Positions 20,288 through 50,479 of a stretch of 64,000 nt of DNA are shown piece after piece. The position numbers were made by a program, and so were the translations under genes. This DNA comes from Candidatus Sumerlaeota bacterium. GTDB taxonomy: Bacteria; Bacillota; SLNR01. The DNA lies in NCBI GenBank assembly GCA_040766585.1, contig JAXGQE010000008.1, positions 28,500 to 92,499 on the forward strand, in the 5' to 3' direction. Each line of letters begins with the position of its first letter. Position 1 is the first letter of the stretch. Under the pieces are notes generated by a model. It saw nothing but the letters and a program-made list of their open reading frames with translations, ran no database searches and was not told the origin of the DNA.

Positions 20288-20828
20288 CATTCAGGAAGTG
20301 CTGATCACCCGGGAACAAATTCATAAGAGAATTCAGGAGATGGGCAGCGAGCTTTCGGAGCATTACCGGGGGCAGGAACTGCTGCTGGTATGCATCCTCA
20401 AAGGAGGGGTGATGTTTCTGGCCGATCTGGCCCGGGCCATCTCCATTCCCTGTGAGCTTGATTTTATGGCTGTATCGAGTTATGGAGCAGCCACAGAGAC
20501 ATCCGGGGTTGTCCGTATACTGAAGGATCTGGATAAAAGCATCCAGGGAAAACATGTCCTTCTGGTTGAAGATGTGGTTGACACCGGGCTGACGCTGCAG
20601 TATCTGGTGAATAACCTGAAAGACCGCGGCCCGGCCAGTCTGAAGATATGTTCTCTGTTAAACAAAAAAGCAAACCGGAAAGTTGAAGTAGAAGTCGATT
20701 TTGTCGGTTTTGAGATTCCAGATAAGTTTGTGGTGGGCTTTGGACTGGATTTTGCCGACGGGTATCGGCATCTTCCCTATGTGGCTGTTCTGAAACCCGA
20801 AATATACAGTGGAGAAGTTCCCCGATAA
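20277..20828 (+). CDS. hpt: Hypoxanthine phosphoribosyltransferase
   Basis: ILKGG, VEDVVDTGLT, FVVGFGLD motifs. Confidence 0.96.
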   Translation: MKNDIQEVLITREQIHKRIQEMGSELSEHYRGQELLLVCILKGGVMFLADLARAISIPCELDFMAVSSYGAATETSGVVRILKDLDKSIQGKHVLLVEDVVDTGLTLQYLVNNLKDRGPASLKICSLLNKKANRKVEVEVDFVGFEIPDKFVVGFGLDFADGYRHLPYVAVLKPEIYSGEVPR

Positions 20829-20906
20829 TGTCAATAACTTGAGAAAATGTCACCTAGAATTGGTTTAATTAACTTGAGAAAATGTCACCCCCGGATACAG
20901 GGAATA

Positions 20907-21035
20907 TGGGGCTCTGCCCCACACCCCGCCCTGCCGGGAAGCGAGGGCCTGTACGACAGACCCCCGCAAAAAGGGTTTGAATGGACGAGGGAATCAAGGG
21001 TCAAGATGAACTCGTGGGACTCGCCCTTGATTCCC
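20907..21035 (-). ncRNA. Candidate structured RNA/ssDNA element in IS 3' non-coding region
   Basis: Three hairpins conserved with compensatory changes in the second IS copy (48912-49043); A-C mismatches on + strand become G-U pairs on - strand. Confidence 0.45.
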
Positions 21036-21041
21036 GCATAA

Positions 21042-22373
21042 TCAGGCATATTCTTTGAGGAAGATGTCTTCAAGGATTTGGATGATATCCCGGTTGCTTT
21101 CATCAAAAGTGATCCTTGGCCAGGCGATGTGGCCGTATTTGAAGTAATGTTCATCGGGAAGAGAAGTATAGATCTGACGAGCAGGAGCCTTAGGTTTGGG
21201 ATTTTTTTTCGGCTTGATAAAGGGGATCACCTGGTAAAAATGCTGATGATGCTGCACCTTAATACCAAAGGCCGGACTGATAAGGACACGGACCGGAGTT
21301 TTGGGAGCCAGGGCAGCCTGAAGGATCTGGAAATGGCGATTAGAAAAAGAGAAGACATGGCCTGCGTCAATGATGCGCTGGTGTTTGACACAAAGGGTGT
21401 GATCCACCAATGTGGAGTCGGGAACATCCCTAAAAGCGGAATCCGGTTCAAGAGGAGCCACTGCAAAACGCTCGTTGAAACGTTTGATGTAGGCAGGGAG
21501 GAAGGCATTGGCGTCACCGATATTTGTGATACCGGCGATTTTAAACTCGACGGGGAGACGGCTTTGGAGAGTGTCCCAGAGTTTTTCCACTCGTCCTTTG
21601 GCCTGGGGTGAACGTGCTTTATGCATGGTGATACCCAGTTCATCCATCGCCCGGCTGAATTGGGTGTGGGGGATCTGCTGGCCGTCAAGCTGATCCTGGA
21701 TGGAGAGGGAGGCGGCTTTGGGTGAGACAAATATGGAGTGGCGGTCCGTGTAGAGGCTGACAGGAATACCGCAGTTGAGAAGCATTTGTCGGGCAACAGC
21801 AAAGTACCCCATCAGGCATTCATGGGGGGTTAGAAAGGCTCCCACAATCTCACCGGTGGCATCGTCAACGGCGCCGTGGAGAGTAAACTTCTCAGGGGTG
21901 GAAAACCATTCAAAGGGAGTGGCATCCATCTGAATCAGAGTACCCCTGCGGGCCTTGCGCTTGCGGCGGTGGTGGGATTTGCGTTTGCGCCTCTTTTTGG
22001 GACTTGCTAGTCCGGCTTCCGTGAGGATTTTGTACAAGGGAGTATAGCTGATGTGAATCTGTTCATGCTCTGCCAGGAGTTCCTGAAAGTGAGTAAAGTT
22101 CGCGTTGATGAAAGGCTCCTGTCCTTTGAGACGAATGATGGCAGCCTTGAGCTGGTCGGTCACTGCGTGAGAAGGTTTACGCCCGGTATTGCTGTGAATG
22201 AGGGATTCTGGTCCCTGTTGTTGCACTCCTTTTTTCAGTCTTTTGATTTGGCGCTCACTTAAATCTAGATCTTCCGCAGCTTCCTGGATCGTCACCTTAC
22301 CTTCGATGACAAGGGATAGTACTTTAAATCTATTCAGTTGTTTTTGGGTCATGAGAAATCGCACCTCGTCCAT
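21042..22373 (-). CDS. ISNCY/IS1202-family DDE transposase
   Basis: N-terminal HTH (LDLSERQIKRL), QMDAT, VDDATG, YTDRHSIF, PQAKGRVEKLWDTLQSRL. Confidence 0.93.
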   Translation of the reverse strand: MDEVRFLMTQKQLNRFKVLSLVIEGKVTIQEAAEDLDLSERQIKRLKKGVQQQGPESLIHSNTGRKPSHAVTDQLKAAIIRLKGQEPFINANFTHFQELLAEHEQIHISYTPLYKILTEAGLASPKKRRKRKSHHRRKRKARRGTLIQMDATPFEWFSTPEKFTLHGAVDDATGEIVGAFLTPHECLMGYFAVARQMLLNCGIPVSLYTDRHSIFVSPKAASLSIQDQLDGQQIPHTQFSRAMDELGITMHKARSPQAKGRVEKLWDTLQSRLPVEFKIAGITNIGDANAFLPAYIKRFNERFAVAPLEPDSAFRDVPDSTLVDHTLCVKHQRIIDAGHVFSFSNRHFQILQAALAPKTPVRVLISPAFGIKVQHHQHFYQVIPFIKPKKNPKPKAPARQIYTSLPDEHYFKYGHIAWPRITFDESNRDIIQILEDIFLKEYA

Positions 22374-22444
22374 AGTGACATTTTATCAAGTTAATTACGA
22401 GGTGACATTATCACAAGTTAAACACAGGAGAAGTTCCCCGATAA

Positions 22445-22473
22445 TTGTATATTTTATCTGGATATGATAAAAT
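22445..22473 (+). promoter_or_regulatory. Sigma-A promoter of ftsH
   Basis: TTGTAT-17 bp-TAAAAT with extended TG; 40 bp upstream of ftsH start. Confidence 0.65.
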
Positions 22474-22512
22474 AATACTCTGTGAATGGTCCATTGGAAA
22501 GGGGGTAAGTTT

Positions 22513-24444
22513 TTGAACAGAGGGGTAAGAAATCTATTGTTCTATGCATTGTTGTTTCTGATCCCGATTATGCTCAGCAGCTATTTTGGCGGGCAGGGAC
22601 AGGAAGTCATCGAAATCAATTACTCAGAATTTGCTTCGTATGTTGAGAACGAACAAATTAAGAGTGTGACGATTACAACCGATACGGATGGCACCAGCAA
22701 AATAACCGGCACACTTAAAGATAATCGTATTTTCACAACCATAACGGTTTCAGATCCCACACTGCCTCAACTGCTGAGGGAAAAGAATGTATCCGTGGAA
22801 GTGGAAAAACCACCGACACCATCCATATGGGTTACCATCCTCTCCACGCTGCTGCCGACGCTGATGATTGTGGGAGTCTTGTTCTTCTTCATGCAGCAGA
22901 CCCAGGGCGGCGGGAATCGAGTCATGCAGTTTGGCAAGAGTCGGGCGAAACTTCATGTGGAACAGAAAAAGCGGGTCACATTTGCCGATGTGGCCGGTAT
23001 TGAAGAGGCCAAAGAAGAGGTTAAGGAAATCGTGGATTTCCTGAAACACCCCAAAAAATATACCGAAATTGGAGCCATGATACCCAAGGGCGTACTGCTC
23101 TTTGGTCCTCCCGGCACCGGGAAAACACTTTTGGCCCGAGCCATTGCCGGCGAAGCCGGAGTGCCGTTTTTCAGTATCAGCGGTTCGGATTTTGTGGAGA
23201 TGTTTGTCGGTGTAGGCGCATCCCGCGTGAGAGACCTTTTCGATCAGGCAAAGAAAAATGCACCGTGCATCGTCTTTATCGATGAAATCGATGCGGTGGG
23301 ACGACAGCGTGGAGCCGGTTACGGCGGAGGTCACGATGAACGGGAACAGACGCTGAACCAGCTGCTGGTGGAAATGGACGGGTTTGGAATGAACGAAGGC
23401 ATTATTGTGGTGGCCGCCACCAACCGTCCCGATGTGCTGGATCCGGCCCTGTTGCGGCCGGGGCGTTTCGATCGTCAGATCATCCTAGACCGACCGGATG
23501 TACATGGGCGATTGGACATCCTGAAAGTCCACATTAAGAACAAACCGCTGGCCGAAGGTGTGGACTTGGAAGTGCTGGCACGAAGGACTCCGGGATTCAC
23601 CGGAGCGGATCTGGCCAATCTGGTCAATGAAGGGGCCCTGCTGGCTGCCCGTATGAATCGAAAGAAGATCGGGATGGAAGAACTGGAAGAAGCCATTGAT
23701 CGGGTCATGGCCGGCCCCGAACGAAAAACCCGAATGATCAGTGAGAAGGAAAAGAAAACTATTGCCTACCATGAAGCAGCCCATGCACTGGTAGCCAGAA
23801 TGGTGGATAAATCAGACCCGGTGCACAAAGTGTCCATCATCCCTCGGGGATCGGCATTGGGCTATGTGCTGCAGCTTCCGACGGAAGATCGATACCTGGT
23901 CAGCAAAACCGAACTGTTGGACAAGATCTCAGTGCTTTTGGCCGGAAGAGCCTCGGAAAGTATATTTTTCGGAGACATCAGCACGGGCGCTCAAAACGAT
24001 CTTGAACAGGCCACCAAACTGACCCGGAGAATGATTACCGAATACGGTATGAGTGATAAACTGGGTCCCGTAACCCTGGGGCACAAACAAGATCAGGTGT
24101 TCCTGGGTCGGGATATTGTTCGGGAAAGGAATTACAGTGAAGAAATTGCTTCCGCCATCGATACGGAAGTACGGGCCATCATCGACGCGTGCTACGAGCG
24201 CGCCAAGAAGGTCATTACTGACAATGAAGAAAAGATGCATCAAATCGTAGCCCTTTTGCTGGAGAAAGAAACCATCGAAGGCAAAGAGTTGGAAATGCTG
24301 CTGAACAATCATGAACCGGAAGAAGAAAAGAATGAGGAACCGGCAATTGAGGCCCCAGAAATCCAACCGGATGAGGCCGAAGTCAAGAATGATGAGAAGG
24401 ACGAAGATGCATACAGAATCGAAAATCGGGAAGCCGGGGAATGA
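22513..24444 (+). CDS. ftsH: ATP-dependent zinc metalloprotease FtsH
   Basis: Two [21 protein letters not shown] zinc motif. Confidence 0.97.
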
Positions 24445-24461
24445 CCCGGCTTCCTTTTTTT
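24429..24461 (+). terminator. Intrinsic terminator after ftsH
   Basis: GGAAGCCGGG-6-CCCGGCTTCC + T7. Confidence 0.75.
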
Positions 24462-24636
24462 ATACCGGGCAGCATATGCGCAGGGATCCATGAAGATGCC
24501 CAGCTCGGTATTTGCAGGAAATCAGACTCCCGAAAGGGAAGTAAACAGCACGAATCGAGTTTTGGCAAAGGGTTTCAGTCAATCGAATCGGACACAGCAT
24601 GAAAATTCAAGGCAGCAAGAAGGTGAGTGGATCAAT

Positions 24637-25197
24637 ATGGATATGGACAAAATCGAAACGGCGGTTCAAATGATTCTGGAGGCCATTGGGGAAGACCCCA
24701 GCCGGGAGGGTCTGCGGGAAACACCCCGGAGAGTAGCCAAGATGTATGCTGAAGTGTTTTCAGGGATCGATCATGACCCCAAAAAAGACCTGGAACTCTT
24801 GTTTCAGGAAAAATATGATGAAATGATTCTGGTGAAAGATATTCCGCTTTATTCAATGTGTGAACATCATTTGCTGCCGTTTTTCGGGAAAGCCCATGTA
24901 GCGTACATTCCTCGGGCTGGAAAAATTACCGGACTCAGCAAAATCGCCCGGCTGGTGGAAACAGTTGCCAAGAGGCCCCAGGTACAGGAAAGGCTGACCA
25001 GCACCGTGGCGGATCTGGTGATGGAACAACTGAATCCCTATGGGGCAGCGGTTATCATTGAAGCAGAACATATGTGCATGACCATGAGAGGTGTACAAAA
25101 ACCGGGATCCATGACGGTTACTTCTGCATTACGAGGCCTGTACCGCAGCGATGAGGCTGCCCGGGCTGAACTCTTTTCCCTGATCAGAAAACAATGA
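24637..25197 (+). CDS. folE: GTP cyclohydrolase I
   Basis: [24 protein letters not shown]. Confidence 0.96.
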
Positions 25198-25213
25198 ATC
25201 GGAGGGATGCTCA

Positions 25214-26410
25214 ATGATCAGCAATCCTCGAATCGTTCAGGCGGATTCTCTGGACGATGCCATGAGAGAAATTGCAGCCGTAGGAGCATGCGGCGCCGGC
25301 GTACGCGCTATGGCGGACAAAGCCAGATATTTGCTTATCCGACTGGATCATGTTTCGCCCATCGCAGCCAATATTATGAAGCAGGAAATGCTTTCAAAGG
25401 GCGGAGAAGCGGCAGTCAGCAAAGGAGCTGTGGATCTATCGGTCAAATACTCTTCGGTCCTGCTGATGGGCACAGTGAAGCAATACAAGATGCTGATCAG
25501 CAAACTGAAGCTGCAGCAGTTTAAACTGCCTGCAATTGCCAAAGAGATTGAAGATCTTCTCTCTCATGTGGAGAAGAAACGCGCAGGTGAATCCGACCGG
25601 CTTCCCTTTGAATGGGGAAAGAGAACATACATTATGGGAATCCTCAATGTAACTCCGGATTCTTTTTCAGACGGAGGACTCTACAACGATCCGGAAGCCG
25701 CTGCAAAGCGAGCGGTGGAAATGGAAGAAGAAGGTGCGGATATCATCGATATCGGTGCAGAATCAACCCGCCCGGGGTTTCGGAAAATATCCAAGGAAGA
25801 AGAAGCTGACCGTCTCTTCCCGGTTCTGGAAAAAGTGCTGCAGAATGTGAGCATTCCTGTGTCCGTCGACACCACCACGGTGGAGATAGCCCGGGAAGCC
25901 ATTTCCATGGGGGCATCCTGGATTAACGATGTTTCCGGTCCGGATCTGAAACCGGAAATGACATCTTTAGCTGCTGAATCCGGTGTTCCCATCATATTGA
26001 TGCACAACCGCAAAGAAGCAGTCTATCAGGATCTTCTGGGTGAAGTAATCTTCGATATCCGCAAAAGCGTTGAGAAAGCCCTGCAGTCCGGAGTTGAAGA
26101 AACACAGATCATTATAGATCCCGGGATTGGTTTCGGAAAGACCGCAGAACACAACCTGATCATACTCAAGAATCTTCGGCAAATCACTACTCTGGGGTTT
26201 CCGGTATTGGTGGGAACTTCCAGGAAGTCATTTATCGGCAAGGTTCTGGATACCACACCCTATGACCGCCTGGAAGGTACAGCGGCTACTGTGGCTGCAT
26301 GCATTGACCGAGGGGCAGATATTATCCGGGTTCATGATGTGGTTCAAATGAGGCGGGTCGCCCAGATGATGGACCGGATTCTGCGAGCAGGAGATGATTC
26401 CAATGAATGA
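25214..26410 (+). CDS. folP: Dihydropteroate synthase with about 130-aa N-terminal extension
   Basis: MGILNVTPDSFSDGG, DPGIGFGK, SRKSF, IRVHD. Confidence 0.95.
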   Translation: MISNPRIVQADSLDDAMREIAAVGACGAGVRAMADKARYLLIRLDHVSPIAANIMKQEMLSKGGEAAVSKGAVDLSVKYSSVLLMGTVKQYKMLISKLKLQQFKLPAIAKEIEDLLSHVEKKRAGESDRLPFEWGKRTYIMGILNVTPDSFSDGGLYNDPEAAAKRAVEMEEEGADIIDIGAESTRPGFRKISKEEEADRLFPVLEKVLQNVSIPVSVDTTTVEIAREAISMGASWINDVSGPDLKPEMTSLAAESGVPIILMHNRKEAVYQDLLGEVIFDIRKSVEKALQSGVEETQIIIDPGIGFGKTAEHNLIILKNLRQITTLGFPVLVGTSRKSFIGKVLDTTPYDRLEGTAATVAACIDRGADIIRVHDVVQMRRVAQMMDRILRAGDDSNE

Positions 26411-26768
26411 TCGGATTCTGCTCCACGGAATGGTGTTCTTCGGATTTCATGGAGTTCATCCTGAGGAAAAGAAACTGGGCCAGCGCTTTATCGTGGATGT
26501 GGATTTGAATGTATCCCTGCAGGATGCAGGCATGACCGATGATCTGACCCGAACCGTCCATTACGGACATGTCTACAAGCTGATTAAAGAAATTGTGACC
26601 GGTCCGAGCTGTAATCTGATTGAAGCCGTCGCAGAGCGAATTGCATCGGCAGTTTTGAAGCAATACAGCGCGGTGGAGGGTATCAATGTACGGATTCGCA
26701 AACCGGAAGTACCCATTGAAGGGGTGTTGGATTTTGCCGGAGTCGAAATTGAACGGAACCGTAAGTAA
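26403..26768 (+). CDS. folB: Dihydroneopterin aldolase
   Basis: HGVHPEEKKLGQRF, HYG, LIEAVAE, KP. Confidence 0.95.
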   Translation: MNDRILLHGMVFFGFHGVHPEEKKLGQRFIVDVDLNVSLQDAGMTDDLTRTVHYGHVYKLIKEIVTGPSCNLIEAVAERIASAVLKQYSAVEGINVRIRKPEVPIEGVLDFAGVEIERNRK

Positions 26769-27264
26769 AGTAATGATCGGGCTGGGTTCCAATGTGGGCG
26801 ACAGATATTCAAACCTGATGCGGGCAGTCAGAGCCATGTCGGCGGATGGGAAGATTATCTTGGAAAAAACATCATCGATCTATGAAACCAGTCCGGTAGG
26901 CGTTCTGGAACAGCCCACATTCTTGAATGCAGTGGTAGAAGGGATCACCGCACTGGATCCTTTCTGTCTCCTGCAGTACCTGAAAGACATCGAAGATGCT
27001 GTGGGAAGAGAGAAAACTTACCGCTGGGGACCCCGGGTGATCGATTTGGATATTATTCTGTACGGGGATCTGCAGATGCAGACCGACGGGTTGACCATAC
27101 CCCATGCAGAAATGAAAAACAGGGCGTTTGTTCTGATTCCCCTGGCGGAAATCGAACCGGATCTGGTGCTTCCGGATGGCACCCCAATCCGACAAGCCTT
27201 GCAGAATCTTTCTGAAGAGGACACAGTAACTCTCCGGAAGGACATATTATTGACACTTTCCTAG
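26749..27264 (+). CDS. folK: 2-amino-4-hydroxy-6-hydroxymethyldihydropteridine diphosphokinase
   Basis: GLGSNVGD, FLNAV, WGPRVIDLDII, IPH, RAFVL; start uncertain. Confidence 0.93.
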   Translation: MNGTVSKVMIGLGSNVGDRYSNLMRAVRAMSADGKIILEKTSSIYETSPVGVLEQPTFLNAVVEGITALDPFCLLQYLKDIEDAVGREKTYRWGPRVIDLDIILYGDLQMQTDGLTIPHAEMKNRAFVLIPLAEIEPDLVLPDGTPIRQALQNLSEEDTVTLRKDILLTLS

Positions 27265-27322
27265 GAAACAGATAGAATGAGATTAGTCTTCCCAAATGCA
27301 CCATGGGAAAGGAGCTATCTAT

Positions 27323-28210
27323 ATGAGACTGAGTCCCTATCAGATTGAAGATGTCGTTCGCCTGGCGCTGGCTGAAGATGTAGGCAGCGGGGATGTTACG
27401 ACGAGTTCGGTTGTCCCGGAGAATACGATCGCATCAGCCGCCATCTATGCGGAAGAGGATGGTATTGTGGCCGGAAATGACATTGCCAAGCTTGTTTTCC
27501 AGATGATTGATAAACGGATCATATACAGCACCCATATTCAGGATGGCGAAGAAGTGGAAGCCGGCCAAGCCATAGCAACGCTGGAAGGACCGGCAGGATC
27601 CATCCTCACCGGAGAGAGGGTCGCGCTTAATTTTTTGGGGCACATGTCCGGGATTGCATCCCGTACCAACCACTTTACGGATTCCATTAAATACTACAGC
27701 GCCAAACTGACGGATACCCGGAAAACAACACCGGGGCTGAGGCTGCTTGAAAAATATGCCGTCAAACTCGGTGGCGGATACAATCACCGCAACGGTTTGT
27801 ACGATGCTGTCTTGATCAAAGAAAACCATATCCGACTGGCCGGAGGAATTAAACAGGCCGTTGTCATGGCGAGAGAGACCATTCCGCATACCATGAGAAT
27901 CGAAGTGGAGATCAACGATATCGATCAGGTGGAGGATGCCCTGGCTGCGAAAGTGGATATTTTGATGCTGGACAACATGAGTCCGGATCAGATAAAGCAA
28001 GTGGTGCAAAAGGTTGATGGGCAGGCCCTGATTGAAGCAGCCGGATACGTATGCAGCGAGAAGATCATTGAAGTAGCGAAAACAGGTGTTGACTATATCT
28101 CCATGGATTGTTTAACCGATTCCAGCAGCCCCGTGCCTATGGAATTGAGAATCGGCGAGATTAAACCGGGAGACAATCCGGCGGACAGCGATCATAAAGA
28201 GCAGGAGTAG
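27323..28210 (+). CDS. nadC: Nicotinate-nucleotide pyrophosphorylase (quinolinate phosphoribosyltransferase)
   Basis: GER, DTRKTTPG, NHR, LIKENH, EVE, MLDN; C-terminal motifs atypical. Confidence 0.85.
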   Translation: MRLSPYQIEDVVRLALAEDVGSGDVTTSSVVPENTIASAAIYAEEDGIVAGNDIAKLVFQMIDKRIIYSTHIQDGEEVEAGQAIATLEGPAGSILTGERVALNFLGHMSGIASRTNHFTDSIKYYSAKLTDTRKTTPGLRLLEKYAVKLGGGYNHRNGLYDAVLIKENHIRLAGGIKQAVVMARETIPHTMRIEVEINDIDQVEDALAAKVDILMLDNMSPDQIKQVVQKVDGQALIEAAGYVCSEKIIEVAKTGVDYISMDCLTDSSSPVPMELRIGEIKPGDNPADSDHKEQE

Positions 28211-28243
28211 CAGCTGGGGGTATTTCGCATTCACCGGAGGTAC

Positions 28244-29149
28244 TTGAGAATGGATATGGAAAAAATGATGTCTGATCTGCACAAATCTGGCTATTTCATC
28301 AGCAAACAGCATTTGTGCGGATTTTCTATTTCCGGAAAAACCGATGAACTGGACCCCCTATGGATTCAAGAGCATCTGGATAGTCAATGGCTGGGGAGGC
28401 ATATCTGCTGCTTTGATCAGCTGGATTCAACCAATGATTTGGCTCAGATGCTGGCTCAGCACCATGCACCGGAGGGGACAGCGGTCCTGACCGATTATCA
28501 GACATCCGGACGCGGTCGAGTCGGCCGAGTATGGCAAATACCGCCGGGGCGAGGGCTGCTGTTTTCTTTTTTGCTGTACCCCTCCATGGAAGCGGCAAAG
28601 ATCCCCCTGCTGACACTGGCAACGGCTGTGGGAGCAGTCAAGGCATTGATCCAAACCACGGGTGTCGATGCAGGAATCAAATGGCCCAATGATTTGATTG
28701 TGCAGAATAGAAAACTGGGCGGAATTCTTTCGGAAGCGCGTTTTGCCGGTTCCTGTCTGAGCCATGTAGTCATCGGCGTTGGCATCAATGTTCATACCCA
28801 GCGGCATGAATGGCCGGTTGAACTTCGCGATACCGCGATTTCACTGCAGCAGGCAACCGGAATATTTTTCAATCGAAATGAATTGTTCTCAGCCATCTGC
28901 CGGGAATGCGAGCATAGCTACAACCAGACTTTCCATGATCCAGACCCAATCATCCAGGACTGGACCCGATACTCCAAGACTTTGGGGAAAGAGATTACCG
29001 TTCAGACACCGTCGGAGGAATATCATGCGGTGGCCGAAGGGATTTCTGGAGACGGGGCTCTGGTGGTCCGCACTGGACAGGGAGAAATGAGGACGATATA
29101 TATGGGGGATATTTCCATCCGCCACGGAAGGAGACAGAACGATGATTAA
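28244..29149 (+). CDS. birA: Biotin--[acetyl-CoA carboxylase] ligase (N-terminal HTH appears truncated)
   Basis: STN, QTSGRGR, KWPND, KLGGIL, GVGIN. Confidence 0.9.
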   Translation: MRMDMEKMMSDLHKSGYFISKQHLCGFSISGKTDELDPLWIQEHLDSQWLGRHICCFDQLDSTNDLAQMLAQHHAPEGTAVLTDYQTSGRGRVGRVWQIPPGRGLLFSFLLYPSMEAAKIPLLTLATAVGAVKALIQTTGVDAGIKWPNDLIVQNRKLGGILSEARFAGSCLSHVVIGVGINVHTQRHEWPVELRDTAISLQQATGIFFNRNELFSAICRECEHSYNQTFHDPDPIIQDWTRYSKTLGKEITVQTPSEEYHAVAEGISGDGALVVRTGQGEMRTIYMGDISIRHGRRQNDD

Positions 29150-31083: not shown

Positions 31084-31110
31084 ATGAGTTGGTAAAAGGC
31101 AGGTGCAACA

Positions 31111-42339: not shown

Positions 42340-42528
42340 ATGAAAGCACGAGTGAATCAAGATGACTGCATTGGCTGCGGAGCGTGTGCAGGAACCTGCC
42401 CCGAGGTATTCCGTCTGGGGGAAAGCGGAAAAAGCGAAGTGTATGTAGATGAAATTAAAGGCGAATGGGAAGACGGAGTCCGAGCTGCTGCCGACGGCTG
42501 CCCCATGGGAGCCATCAGCATCGAATAG
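42340..42528 (+). CDS. Single-cluster ferredoxin
   Basis: CIGCGACAGTCP...CPMGAI; RBS GAGGAG. Confidence 0.9.
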   Translation: MKARVNQDDCIGCGACAGTCPEVFRLGESGKSEVYVDEIKGEWEDGVRAAADGCPMGAISIE

Positions 42529-42621
42529 GTTGAATCCAAAAGAAAGCTTCTGCTCATGCAGAAGCTTTTTCTATTTGATTATGATACAATGAACAGAGAT
42601 TGCACCGAAAGGGGATTCTTG

Positions 42622-43593
42622 ATGAAAATCGGAACTGTGGTTTTGGACAATCCATTGATCATGGCTCCTCTGGCTGGAGTAACCGATTACCCATTCAGGC
42701 AAATCGTAAAAGAATTCGGAGCTGCCCTGGTGTACACAGAAATGATCAGCGCCCAGGGCCTTCTTCACCATAATCGTCAGACACAGCGGATACTGGATAT
42801 TTCAGCCAAAGAAAAACCCACAGCAGTGCAGTTGTTTGGAAAAGAGCCGACTGTTCTTGCTCAAGCAGCTGCAATGGCGGTGGAACGCGGCGCAGACATC
42901 ATTGATGTCAATATGGGCTGTCCAGTGCCAAAGATCGTAAAGAATCAAGAAGGCTCATACCTGATGAAAACCCCGGATCGGGTACGGCGAATCATTGCAG
43001 AATTGGTAAACACCGTTTCAGTGCCTGTCACGGTGAAGATTCGTAAAGGATGGGATCCGGATCATGTCAATACGGTGGAAATTGCCCAGATATGCGAAAA
43101 AGAAGGTGCATCAGCAGTGGCCGTTCATGCCAGGACCCGGGATCAGTACTACGCCGGTAAGGCGGACTGGGATTGCATCGCCCGAGTGAAAGACGCCCTG
43201 CAGATCCCTGTGATTGGCAATGGAGATATCAATGATCCGGAGGATATTCTGAAAATGATTAATCAGACCGGGTGCGATGCGGTGATGATTGGACGTGCCG
43301 CCATGGGCAACCCCTGGATCTTCTCACGAGGGAAGGCCTATCTGGAAACCGGGATCGTACCCCCTCCGCCTTCTGTGTACGGAAAGATTGCCACAGCCAT
43401 TGTGCATTTGCACAACCTGGTTAATTACAAAGGGGAAAGCACCGGCGTCAAAGAGATGAGAAAACATGCTTCCTGGTATATCAAAGGGCTGAAAGGATCT
43501 ACTGAGATCCGGGTAAAAATCAATCGAGCCATGACACTGGCGGAGATGGAGTCTATTCTTTTGGAGTACGGTGAACATCTGGTTCGCCAATGA
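42622..43593 (+). CDS. dusB: tRNA dihydrouridine synthase
   Basis: APLAG, NMGCP, VTVKIR, VHART, GNGD, MIGR. Confidence 0.93.
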   Translation: MKIGTVVLDNPLIMAPLAGVTDYPFRQIVKEFGAALVYTEMISAQGLLHHNRQTQRILDISAKEKPTAVQLFGKEPTVLAQAAAMAVERGADIIDVNMGCPVPKIVKNQEGSYLMKTPDRVRRIIAELVNTVSVPVTVKIRKGWDPDHVNTVEIAQICEKEGASAVAVHARTRDQYYAGKADWDCIARVKDALQIPVIGNGDINDPEDILKMINQTGCDAVMIGRAAMGNPWIFSRGKAYLETGIVPPPPSVYGKIATAIVHLHNLVNYKGESTGVKEMRKHASWYIKGLKGSTEIRVKINRAMTLAEMESILLEYGEHLVRQ

Positions 43594-43614
43594 ACCAACT
43601 GTTATACAAGACAT

Positions 43615-43643
43615 AAGGGGGCAGCGTAGGGCTGTCCCTTTTT
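43615..43643 (+). terminator. Intrinsic terminator after dusB
   Basis: AAGGGGCAGC-GTAGG-GCTGTCCCTT + TTT. Confidence 0.6.
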
Positions 43644-43656
43644 CAATGGAAGCATA

Positions 43657-43710
43657 TTGATTTTCACGGACCGGACTGGTACAATATCAATGAACACAAA
43701 AATGTGCACA
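43657..43710 (+). promoter_or_regulatory. Sigma-A promoter with downstream imperfect palindrome (candidate operator)
   Basis: TTGATT-17-TACAAT with extended TG; TGAACACA-AAAA-TGTGCACA at 43691-43710. Confidence 0.55.
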
Positions 43711-43730
43711 CTAGGCAAGGAGGTGCTGCA

Positions 43731-44255
43731 GTGGATTTTGTTCGAATTGGAGATAAAATAATCAGCCGCAGTAAAGTCATCAAGGTAATCGACAAGATCT
43801 TTTCCTTGCGAAGCCGTGGGTGGTCCCAGCAGGAAATCGCCGATGAGATCGGTACTGATCGAAGTTTTGTTTCTCGACTGGAGACTCTGGCTGAAGTACG
43901 ACGAGGCAAACGGATTGCCTTGATTGGGTTCCCGATCAGCAATAAAGAAGAGATCGAGGAAGTAGCCGTGGAGGAAGGTGTCGAGTTTACACTTCTGCTG
44001 ACCGAAAAGGAACGGTGGGGGTTTGTCCAGGACAAAAGCGGGCTTCAGGTTTTTGATGAAATCATGAAAATCCTTTCTGACATCCGCAGTTTTGATGTGG
44101 TTATTATTATGGCATCCAACAAACGAGTGGCCCTGGTGGAAGGACTGCTGGACAAGGAAGTGATCAGTGTAGAGATTGGCCGGTCACCCATCGGAAGCGA
44201 TATCCGGGTGGAACCGGACACAATCAGAGATATCATCCGTAGCGTTCAAAAGTGA
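43731..44255 (+). CDS. HTH transcriptional regulator
   Basis: LRSRGWSQQEIADEIGTDRSFVSRLE; GTG start after AGGAGG. Confidence 0.8.
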   Translation: MDFVRIGDKIISRSKVIKVIDKIFSLRSRGWSQQEIADEIGTDRSFVSRLETLAEVRRGKRIALIGFPISNKEEIEEVAVEEGVEFTLLLTEKERWGFVQDKSGLQVFDEIMKILSDIRSFDVVIIMASNKRVALVEGLLDKEVISVEIGRSPIGSDIRVEPDTIRDIIRSVQK

Positions 44256-44280
44256 GGATATCATACTGGAGGTCATATCA

Positions 44281-45189
44281 ATGAAGAATATTGTCAGTGT
44301 AAGCCTTGGGTCCTCAAAAAGAAACAGTGTTGCGGAATTGGAGATACTCGGCGAACAGGTACGGATCGAACGAATCGGAACGGATGGAGATCAGCATAAA
44401 GCCATCCAGCTGATTCAGGAAATGGATGGGAAAGTGGATGCATTCGGAATGGGCGGAATCGACCTGTATGTATGGGCTGGAAAGAAGCGCTATGTTCTCA
44501 GGGATGCGGTTCCCATCGCCAAAGCGGCAAAAATCACACCAATTGTTGACGGCAGCGGGTTGAAAAACACTCTGGAGCGCCGAGTCATCTACTATCTGCA
44601 GGAAGAGAAGAAAATTGATTTTCGGGGACGGAAGGTTTTGATGGTCTGCGGAGTGGATCGATTCGGTATGGCTGAAGCTCTTACGGAAGTAGGGAGCAGG
44701 ATGACTTTCGGCGATTTGATTTTTGTGGTGGGGCTGCCGCTGCCCATTCATTCTTTAGGGAGCCTTCACCTGGCCGCCTCAATTCTCGGTCCGATTATCA
44801 GCAAACTACCATTCAGCATGCTGTATCCCACCGGATCGAAACAAGAAAAGGTACAGCCCAAATACGCACGCTATTACCATGAAAACGAAATAATCGCGGG
44901 GGACTTCCATTTTATCCGGCGGTACATGCCGGAAAAGATGGAAGGTAAAATTATCATTACCAACACGGTGACCAAAGATGATGTGGAAGAACTCCGATCC
45001 AGGGGTGTATCCACACTGATTACCACCACACCGGAATTGAATGGTCGTTCTTTCGGGACCAATGTAATGGAAGGAGTTCTAGTGGCCTTATCCGACAAGA
45101 ACTACAAAGACCTGACCCCCCAGGATTACAGTGAACTTCTGGACAGGATTGGATTTGCACCGAGAATAGAGCATCTAAACGATAATTAG
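44281..45189 (+). CDS. Conserved hypothetical protein (family often auto-labelled quinate 5-dehydrogenase; function unproven)
   Basis: VSVSLGSS, RIGTDGD, GMGGID, DGSGLKNTLER, GRSFGTNVME pattern. Confidence 0.6.
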   Translation: MKNIVSVSLGSSKRNSVAELEILGEQVRIERIGTDGDQHKAIQLIQEMDGKVDAFGMGGIDLYVWAGKKRYVLRDAVPIAKAAKITPIVDGSGLKNTLERRVIYYLQEEKKIDFRGRKVLMVCGVDRFGMAEALTEVGSRMTFGDLIFVVGLPLPIHSLGSLHLAASILGPIISKLPFSMLYPTGSKQEKVQPKYARYYHENEIIAGDFHFIRRYMPEKMEGKIIITNTVTKDDVEELRSRGVSTLITTTPELNGRSFGTNVMEGVLVALSDKNYKDLTPQDYSELLDRIGFAPRIEHLNDN

Positions 45190-45202
45190 GAAGGGGATCT
45201 AC

Positions 45203-46288
45203 ATGGAGAAATTCGGTTTTATCTTGCATCCCATAACAGTACGGGATATATCCCGAAAGTTCGGATTTGCCAAACACCTGCCCGATTCAGTACTCGAAAG
45301 TTTGTTTAAGATGGTTCCTCCCCTGAAAGTGTCTCACATCACCGGGGTTAAATCCGACTACAATGAAGCAGAGGGCTGGTTTGTCGCTGTCCCCCTGACG
45401 CCCGCACAAATGACGGGTCTTCCGCTGCCTTTTGTGATGAACCGGATTATCCAGGCGGGGAAAATTGCAGAAAAACAAGGAGCTAAAATTGTTGGGCTGG
45501 GTGCCTTTACATCAGTGGTTGGGGATGCAGGCATTACGGTGGCCAAGCATCTGAATATTGCCGTAACCACAGGAAACAGCTATACTGTTGCCACCGCTCT
45601 GCAGGGAACTGAAAAAGCAGCGGCTTTGATGGATATTGATATGAATCAGGCTCAGGTGGTGGTCCTTGGGGCTACCGGTGCCATCGGCAGTGTCTGTTCC
45701 CAGATTATGGCCCGTGACGGAAGAAATCTCACCCTGGTGGCCAGAGATGAATCAAAACTGGATGGCTTGGCGTCCAGGCTGACAGCCGAATATGATGCCT
45801 CCGTCAATGTTTCAGCAGACGTAAAAAAATCCGTGATGAACGCCGATGTAATTGTGGCAGTCAGCAGCGCGGTGGAAGCGTTGATTGATGGTGAAGATCT
45901 GAAACCCGGAGCCATTGTGTGCGATGTGGCTCGTCCTCGAAGTGTATCCAAGGCCGTCAGTGAAACCCGGGATGATGTCCTGGTTATTGAAGGCGGGGTT
46001 GTGGAACCGCCAGGAGATGTGGACTTTAATTTCAACTTCGGCTTCCCGCCCAAGAATGCGTATGCCTGCATGTCCGAAACTATGATTCTCGCCTTGGAGA
46101 AGCGCTATGAAAACTTCTCTTTAGGAAGAGACATGACCATGCAGCAGATCGAAGAAATATCACAGCTGGCTGACAAGCACGGGTTCAAGCTTGCCGGGTT
46201 CCGCAGTTTTGAGAAAGCGTTGATGCCAGAGGATATCGACCGGATCCGAAAGAATGCTGCAGAACGGCGAATGAAGCTCAACGCATAG
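45203..46288 (+). CDS. Acyl-ACP reductase-like NAD(P)-binding oxidoreductase (COG5322-like)
   Basis: LGAFTS, TTGN, GATGAIGS Rossmann motif, EGG, YACMSE, NFSLGR, HGF. Confidence 0.65.
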   Translation: MEKFGFILHPITVRDISRKFGFAKHLPDSVLESLFKMVPPLKVSHITGVKSDYNEAEGWFVAVPLTPAQMTGLPLPFVMNRIIQAGKIAEKQGAKIVGLGAFTSVVGDAGITVAKHLNIAVTTGNSYTVATALQGTEKAAALMDIDMNQAQVVVLGATGAIGSVCSQIMARDGRNLTLVARDESKLDGLASRLTAEYDASVNVSADVKKSVMNADVIVAVSSAVEALIDGEDLKPGAIVCDVARPRSVSKAVSETRDDVLVIEGGVVEPPGDVDFNFNFGFPPKNAYACMSETMILALEKRYENFSLGRDMTMQQIEEISQLADKHGFKLAGFRSFEKALMPEDIDRIRKNAAERRMKLNA

Positions 46289-46466
46289 GATGAATTTGTC
46301 AGGAAGGAGAGCGCGCTCTCCTTCCTTTTCCATCCCTGGAAGATGGAAAAGGCGGAGATTTACGGAATTACTGAAAAAATAGAGGAATGAAATGATATTT
46401 GTAGAATAGAAAAATGAATTTTCAATCATCAGAGTTTAAGAGCGTCTGATTTGCATTTGGGTATGA

Positions 46467-46495
46467 TTGACAAAGTTTGGGCATGGTCTTATAAT
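46467..46495 (+). promoter_or_regulatory. Consensus sigma-A promoter of greA-lysS
   Basis: TTGACA-17 bp-TATAAT perfect match. Confidence 0.85.
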
Positions 46496-46666
46496 TAGGA
46501 AGACACAAATGCTGTCTACATAGTCCGAAACATGTATCAGGATGCTGTCCTGATACTAATTTTCGTCTCAGTGTGATGCCAGTTCGGCCTTATGGATCCA
46601 TAGCAAATGGGGTCCTTTATTCTATATGAAAAGCATGATGAGTACAGGTAAAGGAGAGCGAAAACA

Positions 46667-47143
46667 ATGGCAGAAAAAGAAGTCATTTTGACGGCCGGCG
46701 GCCTGAACAAACTCGAGACCGAGCTGGAACATCTGAAAACAGTGAAACGCAGGGAGGTAGCTGAACGGATCAAACAGGCTCGGGAATTCGGTGATATCAG
46801 CGAGAACTCCGAATATGAGGACGCCAAGAATGAACAGGCATTTATTGAAGGGCGAATTTTAACCTTGGAAAAAATGCTGCGGGGAGCTCGTTTGATTGAC
46901 GATGATGATATCAGTACCACCCAGGTCAATGTGGGCAGCAAAGTGACATTGAAAGATATAGAATCCGGAGATATTTTCCAGTATTTAATCGTGGGTTCTG
47001 CTGAAGCGAATCCACGGGAAAGCAAGATCTCCAACGAATCGCCGGTTGGAAAAGCACTGCTGGGACTTCCTCCCGGAAGCACGGTGGAAGTGAAAGTCCC
47101 GGCTGGTATCATGAAGTACGAAATATTGGCCATCGCCCGATAA
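46667..47143 (+). CDS. greA: Transcription elongation factor GreA
   Basis: [26 protein letters not shown]. Confidence 0.96.
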
Positions 47144-47165
47144 CAAACCAAATGGAGGGCTACCT

Positions 47166-48647
47166 ATGACGGAAGAATTCAGTATGGATGAAATACACGA
47201 ACTGGTCGCTTTGCGCATGAGCAAAGCCGATGAGCTTCGCGAAAAGGGTATTGACCCATACGGGGATAAGTTTACACGCAACGCTGAAGCCTGTGAAATT
47301 ATTGAGAAATTTGATGAATTCGAAGGTTCTGAAGTGAAAATAGCCGGGCGGATTATGAGCAGACGTGAACACGGGAAAGCAGCTTTTGCGGATCTCCAGG
47401 ACATGACAGGAAAAATCCAATTGTACTTCAGAAAAGATGATCTGGGAGATGAGCCCTACGAAGTGTATACCCGGCTGGTGGACACAGGGGACATCATTGG
47501 CGTGGAAGGGAAAGTATTCCGCACCCGGAGAGGCGAAATATCCATTGCCGTGAAAGAGTTTACCGTCCTATCCAAAGCGCTGCGTCCGCTGCCTGAAAAA
47601 TGGCACGGTTTAAAGGACGTGGACCTGCGGTATCGCCAAAGGTATCTGGATCTGATTGTCAATCCGGAAGTTCGCGAAACCTTTATTCGTAGAACAAAAA
47701 TTATCCAGGCCATTCGCCGGTATATGGACCGGGAAGGATTTTTGGAAGTTGAAACACCCATGATGCATCCCATTGCTGGCGGCGCCACGGCGCGACCCTT
47801 CGTGACCCACCACAATGCTCTGGACATGAAGATGTTTTTGCGGATTGCGCCGGAATTGTACCTGAAGCGTTTGACCGTTGGTGGGCTGGAAAAAGTCTAC
47901 GAAATCAATCGCAACTTCAGAAACGAAGGAGTATCGACGAAACACAATCCGGAATTCACGATGATGGAGCTTTATCAGGCCTATGCGGACTATGAAGATA
48001 TGATGGCGCTGGCCGAGAATATCATTTACTATACAGCCAAGGAAGTTTTGGGAACTGCTCAGATTACTTACCAGGGAGAGCAAATCAACCTGGCTCCCCC
48101 GTACGAGCGGGTAACCATGCTGGATGCCGTAAAGCAGTATGCCGGAGTCGAGTTTATGAGCATTCATTCGGATGTAGAAGCCCGAGCGGCTGCCAGAAGC
48201 CTGAAATTGACGGTTGAACCCAACACCACTCGCTCCCAGGTGCTGGACGAGATCTGGGGTGAATATGTCGAGAAGAACCTCATACAGCCGACCTTTGTTT
48301 TGGATTATCCCACGGAAATTTCACCGCTGGCCAAGAAAAAGAAGGATGATCCCCGGCTGACCTATCGATTTGAACTGTTCATTTTCGGCCGGGAAATGGC
48401 CAATGCGTTTTCAGAACTCAATGATCCCGTGGATCAGAGAGACCGATTTATGCAGCAGATGGCTGAACGGGAAAAGGGCGATGATGAAGCGCACCAGATG
48501 GATGAAGATTATGTAACCGCCCTTGAATACGGTCTGCCCCCCACCGGGGGAATGGGGATCGGCATCGATCGGCTGGTGATGCTTTTAACGGATTCTGCAT
48601 CCATCCGGGATGTTATATTGTTCCCGCAAATGAGACCTCGAGAGTAA
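47166..48647 (+). CDS. lysS: Lysine--tRNA ligase (class II)
   Basis: RYRQRYLDL, EVETP, FRNEG, PPTGGMGIGIDR. Confidence 0.97.
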   Translation: MTEEFSMDEIHELVALRMSKADELREKGIDPYGDKFTRNAEACEIIEKFDEFEGSEVKIAGRIMSRREHGKAAFADLQDMTGKIQLYFRKDDLGDEPYEVYTRLVDTGDIIGVEGKVFRTRRGEISIAVKEFTVLSKALRPLPEKWHGLKDVDLRYRQRYLDLIVNPEVRETFIRRTKIIQAIRRYMDREGFLEVETPMMHPIAGGATARPFVTHHNALDMKMFLRIAPELYLKRLTVGGLEKVYEINRNFRNEGVSTKHNPEFTMMELYQAYADYEDMMALAENIIYYTAKEVLGTAQITYQGEQINLAPPYERVTMLDAVKQYAGVEFMSIHSDVEARAAARSLKLTVEPNTTRSQVLDEIWGEYVEKNLIQPTFVLDYPTEISPLAKKKKDDPRLTYRFELFIFGREMANAFSELNDPVDQRDRFMQQMAEREKGDDEAHQMDEDYVTALEYGLPPTGGMGIGIDRLVMLLTDSASIRDVILFPQMRPRE

Positions 48648-48664
48648 CGATTTTAGTCAAGTAC

Positions 48665-48693
48665 GAGGAGGCCCGTAAGGGCTTTCTCTTTTT
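48665..48693 (+). terminator. Intrinsic terminator after lysS
   Basis: GAGGAGGCCC-GTAA-GGGCTTTCTC + T-run. Confidence 0.7.
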
Positions 48694-48911
48694 CTTTCCC
48701 GATGTCCGGGCGGCGGGTTGGGAAGTTAAAAACAAGTCCAAGTAGCGATAACGAGATATCGGTCAGAATTATATTTCTCAGAGTAGATGAAAAGTGCTGA
48801 AAAACCAGCAAATCTAGTTGTCAATAGTCTGAGATAATGTCACCTAAAAGAGACGAGATTATTCTGAGAATACCCTTTGAATAAGTCAAGAAAGAGTTGA
48901 AGAATTTTGTG

Positions 48912-49043
48912 GGGACGCTGTCCCACTCCCTGTCCTGGCCGGAAGGCAGGTGCCTGATGGGACAGGCACCTAAAAACAGGATGGACAATCACAGGGACTG
49001 TCAAGGGTACACAAGCGAATAAGACCGCTCGCCCTTGACAGTC
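48912..49043 (-). ncRNA. Candidate structured RNA/ssDNA element homologous to 20907-21035
   Basis: GGGAC/GTCCC, AGGTGCCTG/CAGGCACCT, GACTGTCAAGGG/CCCTTGACAGTC stems in the same order as in the first IS. Confidence 0.45.
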
Positions 49044-49058
49044 TGAAGCAAATCCTCT

Positions 49059-50379
49059 CTATGCCCATGGACGGACGGAGCTAAACAGATCATCCAACAT
49101 GGCGAGCATTTCAGCATCTCTCATGAAGCCATAAAGGGGGACAGGGTTTTTAGCACTTTTTCGCCAGGGATGATCGGCCGATGGAGGGGACCCATTTTCA
49201 GGGCGGTTGATTTTTCAACCAGATCCATTTTCTTAGCCTTGATCCAGAATGGCGGTCTGGAAAAGCGCATCTTTGTAGATGCAGCGGATTCCTTGAAGCG
49301 GATGATCCAAGATTTGTCACTTTACCTTCGGTTTACTTATGGTGCTGCATTAACTGATAATGCAGACCCTGGTATGAAAAAGCGCCCTGGTCGATGAGAG
49401 TACGGGTATGTTTGATACAAAGCACCGTAGTGAGATCACAAGAAGAATCCACCGGGCGAAAAGCCGTGGAGGGAGTCTTGCGGAACCACCGCAAATCGGT
49501 TAAAATGGCGGATCATTTCCGGTAAGAAGGCATTGGCTTGTTCCAGGGAAGTAATGCCACTGAGTTCAAACATCACCGGCAATCGACTTTTTGTATAGTG
49601 TTCCAGAGCCGTTCGATACGGCCCTTGGCTTGAGGAGCGGGGCTTTGATCATCTGAATGGCAAGCTCTTGCATGGCCCGTCCGAATTGGGTCAAAGGCTC
49701 AGTGACTCCTTGAAGCTGATCTTCTAGAGAGACAGCCGTATCCTTCGGAGAAAGAAGATGGTGTGGCGGTCACAGTACAATTTCGCCGGACGGCCATATT
49801 CTTTGAGAAGTTGATTCATCACCTGAAAGTAGCCATGCAGACACTCATTTTCCGAAAAATGCAGCCCTAAGATGGCCCCAGTGGCATCATCAATTGCCCC
49901 ATGCAATGTGATGGGCTTTTCATTGGGAATCCAGGCAAAAGGGGAAGCATCCATTTGAACCAGAATGCCTGCCTGTCTTTTACGACGATGGTGTGCCTTT
50001 TCTGGCGATGAATTTTGGGGGCTTTTAATCCCCGCCTGAGCCAGCGTGCGGGTAAACGGTGGGATAACTCACATGGATCTCTTCCATCTCCGCTAAAAGT
50101 CGGGAAATGAGCAAAATTGGCCGATGGATACTTAGTCTGTTTGAGAGAGACTATGTGTGCAAAGCGGATCAGAAACAGCGTGCGGGTGCTCGGACTCCGA
50201 TTTTTATGGATGAGAAACGACGGTCCGTGGTTCAAAACCCCTCCTTTTAAACGGAGCACTTGTCGTTCACTGAGGCCCAACATCTCAGCCGCTGTTTTGA
50301 TGGTAATTACTTTATCAATCGTTTGGTTAATGACCCGGTTGACTTCTTGTTGAGTCATGTTGAATATCTCCCTTCTCAT
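49059..50379 (-). pseudogene. Frameshifted ISNCY/IS1202 transposase (real pseudogene or consensus errors)
   Basis: Fragments LGLSERQVLRL, MDASPF..LHGAIDDATG..YCDRH, C-terminal MLDDLF in different frames. Confidence 0.75.
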
Positions 50380-50450
50380 AGGTGACATTTTATCAGAATA
50401 AATTCAACATGACATTATCACAGAATAACTACAAAACCAGCAAATCTAGT

Positions 50451-50479
50451 TTGACAAGCGTTTTTGATTATGATACTAT
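50451..50479 (+). promoter_or_regulatory. rrn operon sigma-A promoter
   Basis: TTGACA-17 bp-TACTAT with extended TG (TATAAT also at 50477-50482). Confidence 0.7.

Follow-up and report, generated by a model that had tools for sequence, protein, structure and literature searches.

Two insertion sequences (IS) lie within a 64,000-nt window of the genome of a Candidatus Sumerlaeota bacterium (contig JAXGQE010000008.1, positions 28,500 to 92,499; positions given below without a contig are those of this window), each flush against the -35 box of a predicted promoter, that of ftsH for element 1 and that of an rRNA operon (rrn) for element 2. We propose that both belong to an IS lineage whose DDE transposase very probably selects sigma-A-type promoters as its insertion sites. 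The insertions have a fixed orientation, their promoter-proximal cut is flush with the -35 hexamer, the two cuts are staggered by 16 to 18 bp, and the promoter and the end of the upstream gene are preserved. The initial annotation had proposed promoter-targeted transposition from these two copies, and the proposal is now supported by 37 insertions confirmed by their target-site duplications (TSDs).

Both elements carry imperfect inverted repeats (IRs) of 26 bp that start with TGT at both ends, in keeping with the roughly 24 to 27 bp typical of the IS1202 family; we refer to the IR at the transposase-5' end as IRL and to the one at the transposase-3' end as IRR. A script re-found both elements and their TSDs exact to the base, with TTGTAT-N17-TAAAAT flush against the duplication of element 1 and TTGACA-N17-TACTAT flush against that of element 2, as first described; TGA stands directly ahead of the -10 in both. 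The rest of that description holds as well: the two TSDs are unrelated in sequence, the orientation is the same in both cases, with the transposase genes pointing away from the host promoter, and the host genes are unbroken, since ftsH is whole and the hpt-like gene upstream is intact because its stop codon sits in the left TSD copy of element 1.

Does this arrangement hold beyond two copies? We fetched 80 loci from a one-genome-per-species collection with a transposase alignment as the sole bait, and element ends were confirmed by a script that required an IR pair and a direct repeat of 15 to 19 bp and was blind to promoters. Both ends were confirmed in 23 of the 80 loci. In 22 of these 23 the repeat directly abuts a -35-like hexamer; the remaining one, L037, represents an IRR-18 bp-IRL junction found on a 1625-nt contig of a Desulfosporosinus metagenome-assembled genome (MAG). 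A relaxed search added one locus from an Atribacteria MAG (L107), and with 13 insertions from the window's own genome the pooled set comprises 37 insertions with both ends and a TSD, which is 16 bp long in 4, 17 bp in 21, and 18 bp in 12. The 24 insertions outside the window's own genome come from other Bacillota and from the Atribacteria MAG. Hosts include Clostridium, Pelotomaculum, Sporomusa, Caldicoprobacter, Caloramator, Dethiobacter, Anaerovoracaceae, Oscillospiraceae, Tepidanaerobacteraceae, and Coriobacteriia and Atribacteria MAGs; the Spirochaetia, Atribacteria, Coriobacteriia, Lentisphaerae, and Acholeplasma MAGs contributed single copies only.

We scored promoters as matches to the -35 and -10 hexamers, out of 12. 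When the insertions were aligned on the TSD boundary, as the initial annotation had suggested, the best promoter match among offsets 0 to 59 lay exactly one duplication length from the IRL tip in 31/37. At that offset the score reached at least 9/12 in 30/37 insertions and at least 8/12 in 33/37; a score of at least 9/12 was found at 2 of 2035 offsets more than 2 nt away and, in the window's own genome, at 0.05% of 200,000 positions drawn at random. A TAnnnT motif follows at N17 in 34/37 sites and at N16 to N18 in 36/37. The IRR end served as a control: none of 35 flanks there reached 9/12, and no offset was preferred. A hybrid promoter on the IRR side was considered and rejected, conservation there being limited to one base.

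A second set consisted of 31 loci in which the IRL tip was placed by motif only (a pair of outer and inner motifs, the inner repeat lying 27 nt inside); the best offset was 16 to 19 in 23/31, and the score was at least 8 in 22/31. The misses are L031, L033, L034, L055, L058, L077, L103, and L108, while L090 has an offset in range with a score of 7.5. We left uncounted 17 of the 80 loci in which the motif gave no tip and 8 with less than 50 nt of flank. In a divergent clade (L076 to L085), an IRL flank is present only in L078 and L079, and by eye these have TTGACT-N17-TATAAT and TTGAAA-N17-TAAGAT, respectively, each 17 nt from the tip. A separate Spirochaetia locus (L109:2250-4159) encodes a 42%-identical relative that deviates from the pattern: TGTCAA lies on the transposase-5' side, the acidic C-terminal helix is missing, and direct repeats of about 125 bp flank the element, whose ends could not be placed.

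Unoccupied sites bear on the same question. In a same-genus sister species without the IS (G001), the hpt TAA is directly followed by TTGTGC-N17-TAAAAT and ftsH. A 1183-nt DNA contig from a public metagenome run on sediment (X7) joins window position 20810 to 22427 and omits exactly element 1 and one copy of the repeat. Contig C13 of the window's own genome holds an unoccupied TTGACA-N17-TATAAT, and the same flank is joined to element ends in loose ends of two other runs (X3 and X15). Because such empty sites were found, we conclude that the insertions are real and recent enough for polymorphism and that the promoters pre-existed. With the original finding resting on n = 2, one could have argued that the arrangement was a coincidence or that the promoter was the element's own, a mobile outward-facing one. 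Given the exact register described above, the spacer sequences and TSDs that all differ between sites, and the promoter's existence without the element in G001 and in the X7 contig, we regard both ideas as already refuted and their probability as close to nil.

The window's own genome (a 2.36-Mb assembly in 16 contigs) allows the target to be compared with its background. A pattern search found 18 IRL tips, three of which have one common flank and a degenerate tip, leaving 16 distinct sites. An exact TTGACA lies 17 or 18 nt from the IRL tip at 10 of them; five further sites have TTGCAA, TTGACC, TTGTAT, TGGTAT, or TCGTAA, and one has nothing. At 14/16 sites, TAnnnT stands exactly 17 nt past the boundary hexamer. 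The genome contains 1389 TTGACA on both strands, of which 101 (7.3%) have TAnnnT at N17, and by hand tally elements occupy 9 of these 101 versus 1 of the 1288 others.

It could be supposed that only a TTGACA-like word resembling the element's own tip is recognised and that other insertions were purged by selection, insertions within genes often being harmful; the exact TTGACA in 18/37 sites and the TTG in 31/37 would fit. We consider this very improbable. Only the 7.3% of TTGACA just mentioned carry TAnnnT at N17, versus 34/37 sites, and those with a -35 of 3/6 or less still hold a -10 in exact register, a base-exact register beyond what selection can give. The full promoter pattern (a TSD of 18 bp, then TTGACC-N17-TATAAT) is also seen on a Paenibacillus replicon, at an insertion into coding DNA of an IS3-family element that falls between the HTH_Tnp_1 open reading frame (ORF) and the HTH_21/rve ORF of the latter. 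Because this site lies inside an IS3-family element, what is chosen would be a sequence or a polymerase site and not an intergenic position.

What lies behind the occupied promoters? Downstream genes are co-oriented: an ORF of at least 70 amino acids (aa) starts no more than 300 nt past the predicted start at 13 of 15 sites in the window's own genome, and the remaining two have the 16S rRNA gene and an apparent tRNA gene (recognised by eye, no tRNA scan having been run). Among ten downstream ORFs examined, eight matched a Pfam family (rplU, thrS, cysS, guaB, an rsmD-like gene, a major facilitator superfamily carrier, GDT1, and an HTH_3 regulator) and two of the ten matched no Pfam family. Judged from these assignments, the genes behind occupied promoters appear to be mostly housekeeping genes.

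The logo of 36 sites resolves the target base by base. Counted from the duplication boundary, positions 0 to 5 read T36 T34 G33 A26 C24 A24, positions 20 and 21 read T25 G22, and positions 23 to 28 read T34 A34 T20 A27 A25 T34; no conservation was seen within the duplication or past the -10. At the level of sequence, the pattern of the aligned sites is that of a sigma-A promoter. In six sites with spacers of 16 or 18 bp, TTGA begins at the boundary in every case, and because it stays there when the spacer varies, the ruler would start at the -35 and not at the -10. The distal cut would be the flexible one, because the length of the duplication varies between 16 and 18 bp.

In total, these observations show that two strand transfers, staggered by 16 to 18 bp, join the element to its target, the promoter-proximal one at the upstream edge of the -35. 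The element always enters with IRL toward the promoter, and insertion regenerates the -35, the spacer, and the -10 together with the 16 to 18 bp upstream, so that the upstream gene keeps its end and the transposase gene reads away from the host promoter. We posit that the thing recognised is the promoter as read by sigma-A, most likely the promoter-bound RNA polymerase holoenzyme, and that sigma region 4 or a neighbouring surface would be the zero point of the ruler. The contact may run via the subgroup-specific C-terminal part of the transposase (a beta-barrel, a basic linker, and a conserved acidic helix). We give recognition via the polymerase a slightly better than even chance. The promoter as seen by sigma-A is favoured for three reasons: the logo follows sigma-A preferences and not the element's binding motif, either promoter element may be weak if the other is strong, and a sister subgroup of the same IS family uses a protein-bound XerC/XerD site with the same geometry.

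Could the transposase instead read the DNA directly? Its two helix-turn-helix (HTH) domains at the N terminus or its beta-barrel would then bind the -35 and extended -10 without polymerase, and we consider this, the one serious rival, rather unlikely, though the element itself gives it substance. Because the element ends carry promoter-like words, DNA-binding domains could plausibly read promoter DNA: the IRR tip TGTCAA, present in every listed TSD-confirmed relative, is the complement of TTGACA, both IRs contain TGnGA(T/A)AAT and then GTCAC in all relatives examined, the promoter scan calls a promoter inside IRL (22408-22380), and two sites have a flush TTGACA but no good -10. The target logo nevertheless follows sigma-A and not the IR, in that TTG is kept more than ACA, whereas the fixed part of the IR is GTCA. 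The logo is also unlike the IR motif because the IR has G at the first -10-like position, a base found there in 0/36 targets, 34 of which have T. The two words differ in relative orientation and spacing between IR and promoter. Furthermore, a TGn-10 compensates for a weak -35, as it does when polymerase binds: sites with a poor -35 (TGGTAT, TCGTAA, TTTTTA, and CTTCCA) stay in register via TGnTATAAT at N17, and TG is present in 10/13 sites with a -35 of 3/6 or less versus 14/45 others, with a cut picked after viewing the table. None of these points is decisive against direct read-out.

Several observations, besides the promoter-like words in the IRs, weigh against a polymerase route or against promoter choice altogether. 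With a pre-set cut (4/6 or less), the association of a weak -35 with TG was 12/22 versus 12/36 and lacked significance (p = 0.17). The first base past the distal cut is A in 25/35, mirroring the invariant T (36/36) at the proximal cut, which implies that the catalytic site's own preference for certain bases contributes to the signal. At L034:1100-1167 the element abuts an apparent tRNA gene (T-arm-like GGTTCGAATCC) and has no promoter at the expected offset; L077, L033, and L058 are without a promoter as well, and L108 and C14:142670 of the window's own genome have TTGACA but a poor -10. Finally, one promoter consensus is common to all hosts sampled.

The transposase places the elements in a known family. 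That of element 1 matches the NCBIfam model NF033594 (transpos_ISNCY_2) with 401.7 bits against a cut-off of 250, in agreement with the IS1202-like assignment of the initial annotation; the runner-up, IS481, gives 96 bits against a cut-off of 224. In an alignment of 43 relatives, D150, D170, D171, D210, E263, and Q270 are invariant. According to the accessible parts of Siguier et al. (10.1101/2022.12.17.520857), DDE + DD + Q(E+7) is the signature of the IS1202 family, and the invariant D/D/D/D/E/Q columns match it, the catalytic triad being a prediction from the alignment and the structural model. The lineage is widespread, with 4120 proteins at E values up to 0.001 among 8000 scored.

In an AlphaFold (AF2) model of this transposase (mean predicted local distance difference test score, 84.8), two HTH domains (residues 10-58 and 73-119) are followed by an RNase-H (DDE) core (146-303), a beta-barrel (329-385), a low-confidence basic linker, and helices at 410-417 and 427-442. 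The best Foldseek matches are TnsB (of CRISPR-associated transposons [CAST] and Tn7), IstA, MuA, and retroviral integrases; the structures 8rdu, 7svw, 8b4h, and 4fcy match with E values of 4e-15 to 7.5e-9 at 12 to 17% sequence identity. Against an ISKpn21-family transposase, the identity is 32% over residues 7 to 307, the final ~135 residues are unalignable, and 9 additional residues, in two gaps (5 and 4), correspond to the small DDE-region insertion of the ISTde1 subgroup. By the features tested (TSD length, IRs, and DDE insertion), the elements fit this subgroup of the IS1202 family. Among the 23 TSD-confirmed relatives, 22 have IRs starting with TGT, the exception being L104, whose IRL starts with TGC.

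The C-terminal helices had already been singled out in the initial annotation. Both quoted strings are found, RDIIQILEDIF in the translation of element 1 and DAEMLAMLDDLF, by eye, on the reverse strand of element 2, and an alignment of relatives shows that the tail is kept throughout the clade with the consensus PPD.HY.KYGH ... SD.DIL.MLEEIFL.KYA. By analogy with TnsB, MuA, and IstA, this C-terminal module, which is not conserved across the family, would be the natural candidate for the contact. A co-fold that combined residues 386-443 of the transposase with sigma-A 278-358 and the C-terminal domain of alpha gave a score of 0.02 (mark, 0.32) and weighs neither way. More generally, the IS1202 family may read host nucleoprotein landmarks through exchangeable C-terminal modules, with one landmark per subgroup, namely, the Xer complex (5-6 bp), polymerase (16-18 bp), and some further mark (27-28 bp); the duplication lengths in the family step by about one helical turn. 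The combined reading, in which the element docks on the holoenzyme via its C-terminal module, taking sigma-A region 4 on the -35 as zero, and the whole family reads landmarks, is put forward tentatively, its chances being somewhat below even.

Because insertion regenerates the promoter, the site remains a target and elements can stack, and stacking at contig C1 (C1:193900-198510) is the expected outcome. Here one 17-bp TSD occurs three times beside a predicted tRNA-operon promoter (TTGACC-N17-TATAAT), and the repeats separate a copy of subfamily A, the subfamily of element 1, from a second A copy, which unrelated DNA interrupts, and from a 13-nt stump of an IRL of the type of subfamily B, that of element 2. 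All stacked elements have IRL toward the promoter, and the array looks like three successive hits on one predicted promoter. At C10:208204-212798, two A copies form a 4.6-kb composite that encloses the C1 duplication together with unrelated DNA and is bordered by a 17-bp duplication of its own at the promoter (TGGTAT-N17-TATAAT) of guaB, encoding IMP dehydrogenase; the tandem seems to have moved as a single unit. A circle-junction promoter formed by the IRR TTGACA and the IRL TGnGATAAT was also considered: it would need a 3-bp junction spacer, and only 17 to 18 bp were seen in the junction-like sequences (L037 and the tandems of the window's own genome), for which repeated targeting of the same promoter accounts. 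The L037 contig itself barely exceeds the length of the element and may reflect a tandem arrangement, repeat collapse, or a circle junction. As a separate observation, the IRL of one A copy is broken after 18 nt by roughly 1.36 kb of unrelated DNA that contains an ORF start (C1:195533-196891); this flank is found three times in this genome, on C1 and on C10 near 158021 and 209810, and the insert is possibly another small mobile element.

The features of the window are collected in Table 1.

Table 1. Elements 1 and 2, their targets, and neighbouring genes in the window; promoters are predictions
Feature	Position	Strand	Basis or remark
hpt-like phosphoribosyltransferase ORF	20028..20828	+	Pfam Pribosyltran 3.1e-31; final 18 bp, including the stop codon, are the target duplication
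Element 1 left TSD copy, 18 bp, GGAGAAGTTCCCCGATAA	20811..20828		Exact repeat of 22427-22444
Element 1, IS1202-family (ISTde1-subgroup) IS, 1598 bp, subfamily A	20829..22426	-	IR pair and TSD
Element 1 IRR (transposase-3' end)	20829..20854	+	Tip TGTCAA, i.e., outward-facing TTGACA
Transposase, 443 aa, intact	21042..22373	-	NF033594; Pfam HTH_29/HTH_28/rve; AF2 model; Foldseek
Candidate transposase promoter within IRL, ATGTCA-N17-TAAAAT with TG	22380..22408	-	Promoter scan 9/12; consensus match only
Element 1 IRL (transposase-5' end), facing host promoter	22401..22426	-	Sequence
Element 1 right TSD copy, 18 bp	22427..22444		Exact repeat of left copy
Predicted ftsH promoter	22445..22473	+	-35 TTGTAT 22445-22450, TG 22465-22466, -10 TAAAAT 22468-22473
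ftsH ORF, unbroken	22486..24444	+	Pfam FtsH_ext, AAA, Peptidase_M41
lysS (class II lysyl-tRNA synthetase type), upstream of element 2	47166..48647	+	Pfam tRNA-synt_2 1.9e-97, tRNA_anti-codon
Element 2 left TSD copy, 17 bp, AAACCAGCAAATCTAGT	48802..48818		Exact repeat of 50434-50450
Element 2, subfamily B copy, 1615 bp	48819..50433	-	IRs 48819-48844 and 50408-50433; transposase frame broken in assembly
Element 2 right TSD copy, 17 bp	50434..50450		Exact repeat of left copy
Predicted rrn promoter	50451..50479	+	-35 TTGACA 50451-50456, TG 50471-50472, -10 TACTAT 50474-50479
16S rRNA gene	50598..52135	+	Rfam RF00177, 1401.7 bits, full length; 119 bp downstream of promoter

The promoter scan missed the ftsH promoter because its -35 matches only 3/6. 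The true start of ftsH probably lies slightly downstream of 22486. The hpt ORF is listed with 266 aa, of which residues 96-242 form the Pribosyltran match, and it overlaps a preceding ORF of 478 aa (18851-20287); the real hpt start probably lies further downstream than the listed one. On the minus strand, the scan also called an outward-facing GTGACA-N17-CATTAT with TG at 20825-20853, spanning the IRR tip and the duplication; it is a consensus match only, and any transcript from it would run back into the end of hpt. An RNA run (X15) yielded contigs covering parts of the 5' region of the element and ftsH, which are uninformative on starts and levels.

Element 1 has 96 to 99% identity to four further copies in its own genome. 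Element 2, with a longest ORF of 173 aa, has 90 to 95% identity to seven other B copies, with 27 to 42 gap openings; its broken frames share 39 to 41% protein identity with element 1, and an intact B copy on contig C5 shares 51%. Full ORFs occur only in element 1 (443 aa) and in the C5 copy (453 aa). Copies in this genome differ by 19 to 42 gap openings per 1.6 kb versus 4 to 59 mismatches, so that small indels exceed the expectation based on mismatches, and part of the frameshifts in repeat copies may be assembly error.

How do these elements compare with what is known of their family? The ISAba32 subgroup (ISAjo2, ISAba32, ISKpn21, and relatives) inserts beside XerC/XerD sites (pdif/dif), according to the portions available of 10.1101/2022.12.17.520857 and PMC10132070. 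As described in the former, that subgroup likewise has its landmark one duplication length from IRL and a fixed orientation, whereas its duplication is 5 to 6 bp and its landmark an Xer site, compared with 16 to 18 bp and a promoter here; the unalignable final part of the transposase is a further difference. The ISTde1 subgroup, with ISTde1, ISHahy13, ISCARN53/62/63, ISShha1, and ISVbsp4, is described in the same portions as having repeats of 15 to 17 bp (PMC10132070; 10.1101/2022.12.17.520857). It resembles our elements in duplication length, in TGT tips, in an IR block conserved near position 20, and in the small DDE-region insertion; the 18-bp duplications found here exceed the published range by one. 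Within those portions, a target site is reported only for the 5-bp subgroup and none for the ISTde1 subgroup (PMC10132070; 10.1101/2022.12.17.520857), and the word "promoter" occurs 0 times in the available text of PMC10132070 and 4 times in that of 10.1101/2022.12.17.520857, where the passages shown concern hybrid or junction promoters.

Our literature searches, which covered main texts and not supplements (Supplementary Table 1 of 10.1101/2022.12.17.520857 may list flanks), retrieved no report of an IS that targets or docks on promoters. Insertions of IS5 and IS1 accumulate in Escherichia coli upstream of the silent operons bgl, flhDC, and glpFK, as set out in the accessible parts of PMC5493358 and PMC4117983. 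These hot spots are regional in scale and linked with DNA structure and with selection for activation, unlike base-exact docking at a -35. The IS family and the principle of landmark targeting are known; to judge from these searches, the promoter as the landmark is new.

Target choice by transposons sets the level of damage and the location of genome rearrangements. If promoters are indeed what is chosen, this would explain how a small genome can be loaded with elements without gene breakage, about 9 of 101 consensus promoters being occupied here, and it would predict stacked arrays at strong promoters and rearrangements between the promoters of rrn, tRNA, ribosomal-protein, and synthetase genes. 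It would also offer a natural tool for inserting a marker at a fixed distance from a promoter and, possibly, an in vivo read-out of polymerase occupancy. The finding is also a testable handle on the role of the variable C-terminal region of IS1202-family transposases.

Base-exact targeting in bacteria is known at attTn7, Xer sites, repetitive extragenic palindromic (REP) sequences, guide RNAs, and single-stranded motifs. In TnsB, IstA, and MuA, a C-terminal tail contacts a separate target-selecting ATPase. The modelled transposase appears to share the layout of Tn7/CAST TnsB, IS21 IstA, and MuA, with HTH domains, an RNase-H core, a beta-barrel, and a tail. Unlike those systems, the element has no TnsC-, IstB-, or MuB-like gene; a host factor would have to select its target. 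Tethering to the transcription machinery is known from eukaryotic retroelements, namely, Ty3 (at Pol III start sites via TFIIIB), Ty1, Tf1, and the Dictyostelium TRE, whose tethers have been shown biochemically. The likeness lies in a fixed, base-level distance from a promoter landmark and in the sparing of genes; hosts and machinery are unrelated, and the tether proposed here is inferred only. If the IS does dock on polymerase, then its divergent placement would tie the expression of the transposase to how active strong, growth-related promoters are, and the lineage would be a bacterial counterpart of Ty3 and TFIIIB.

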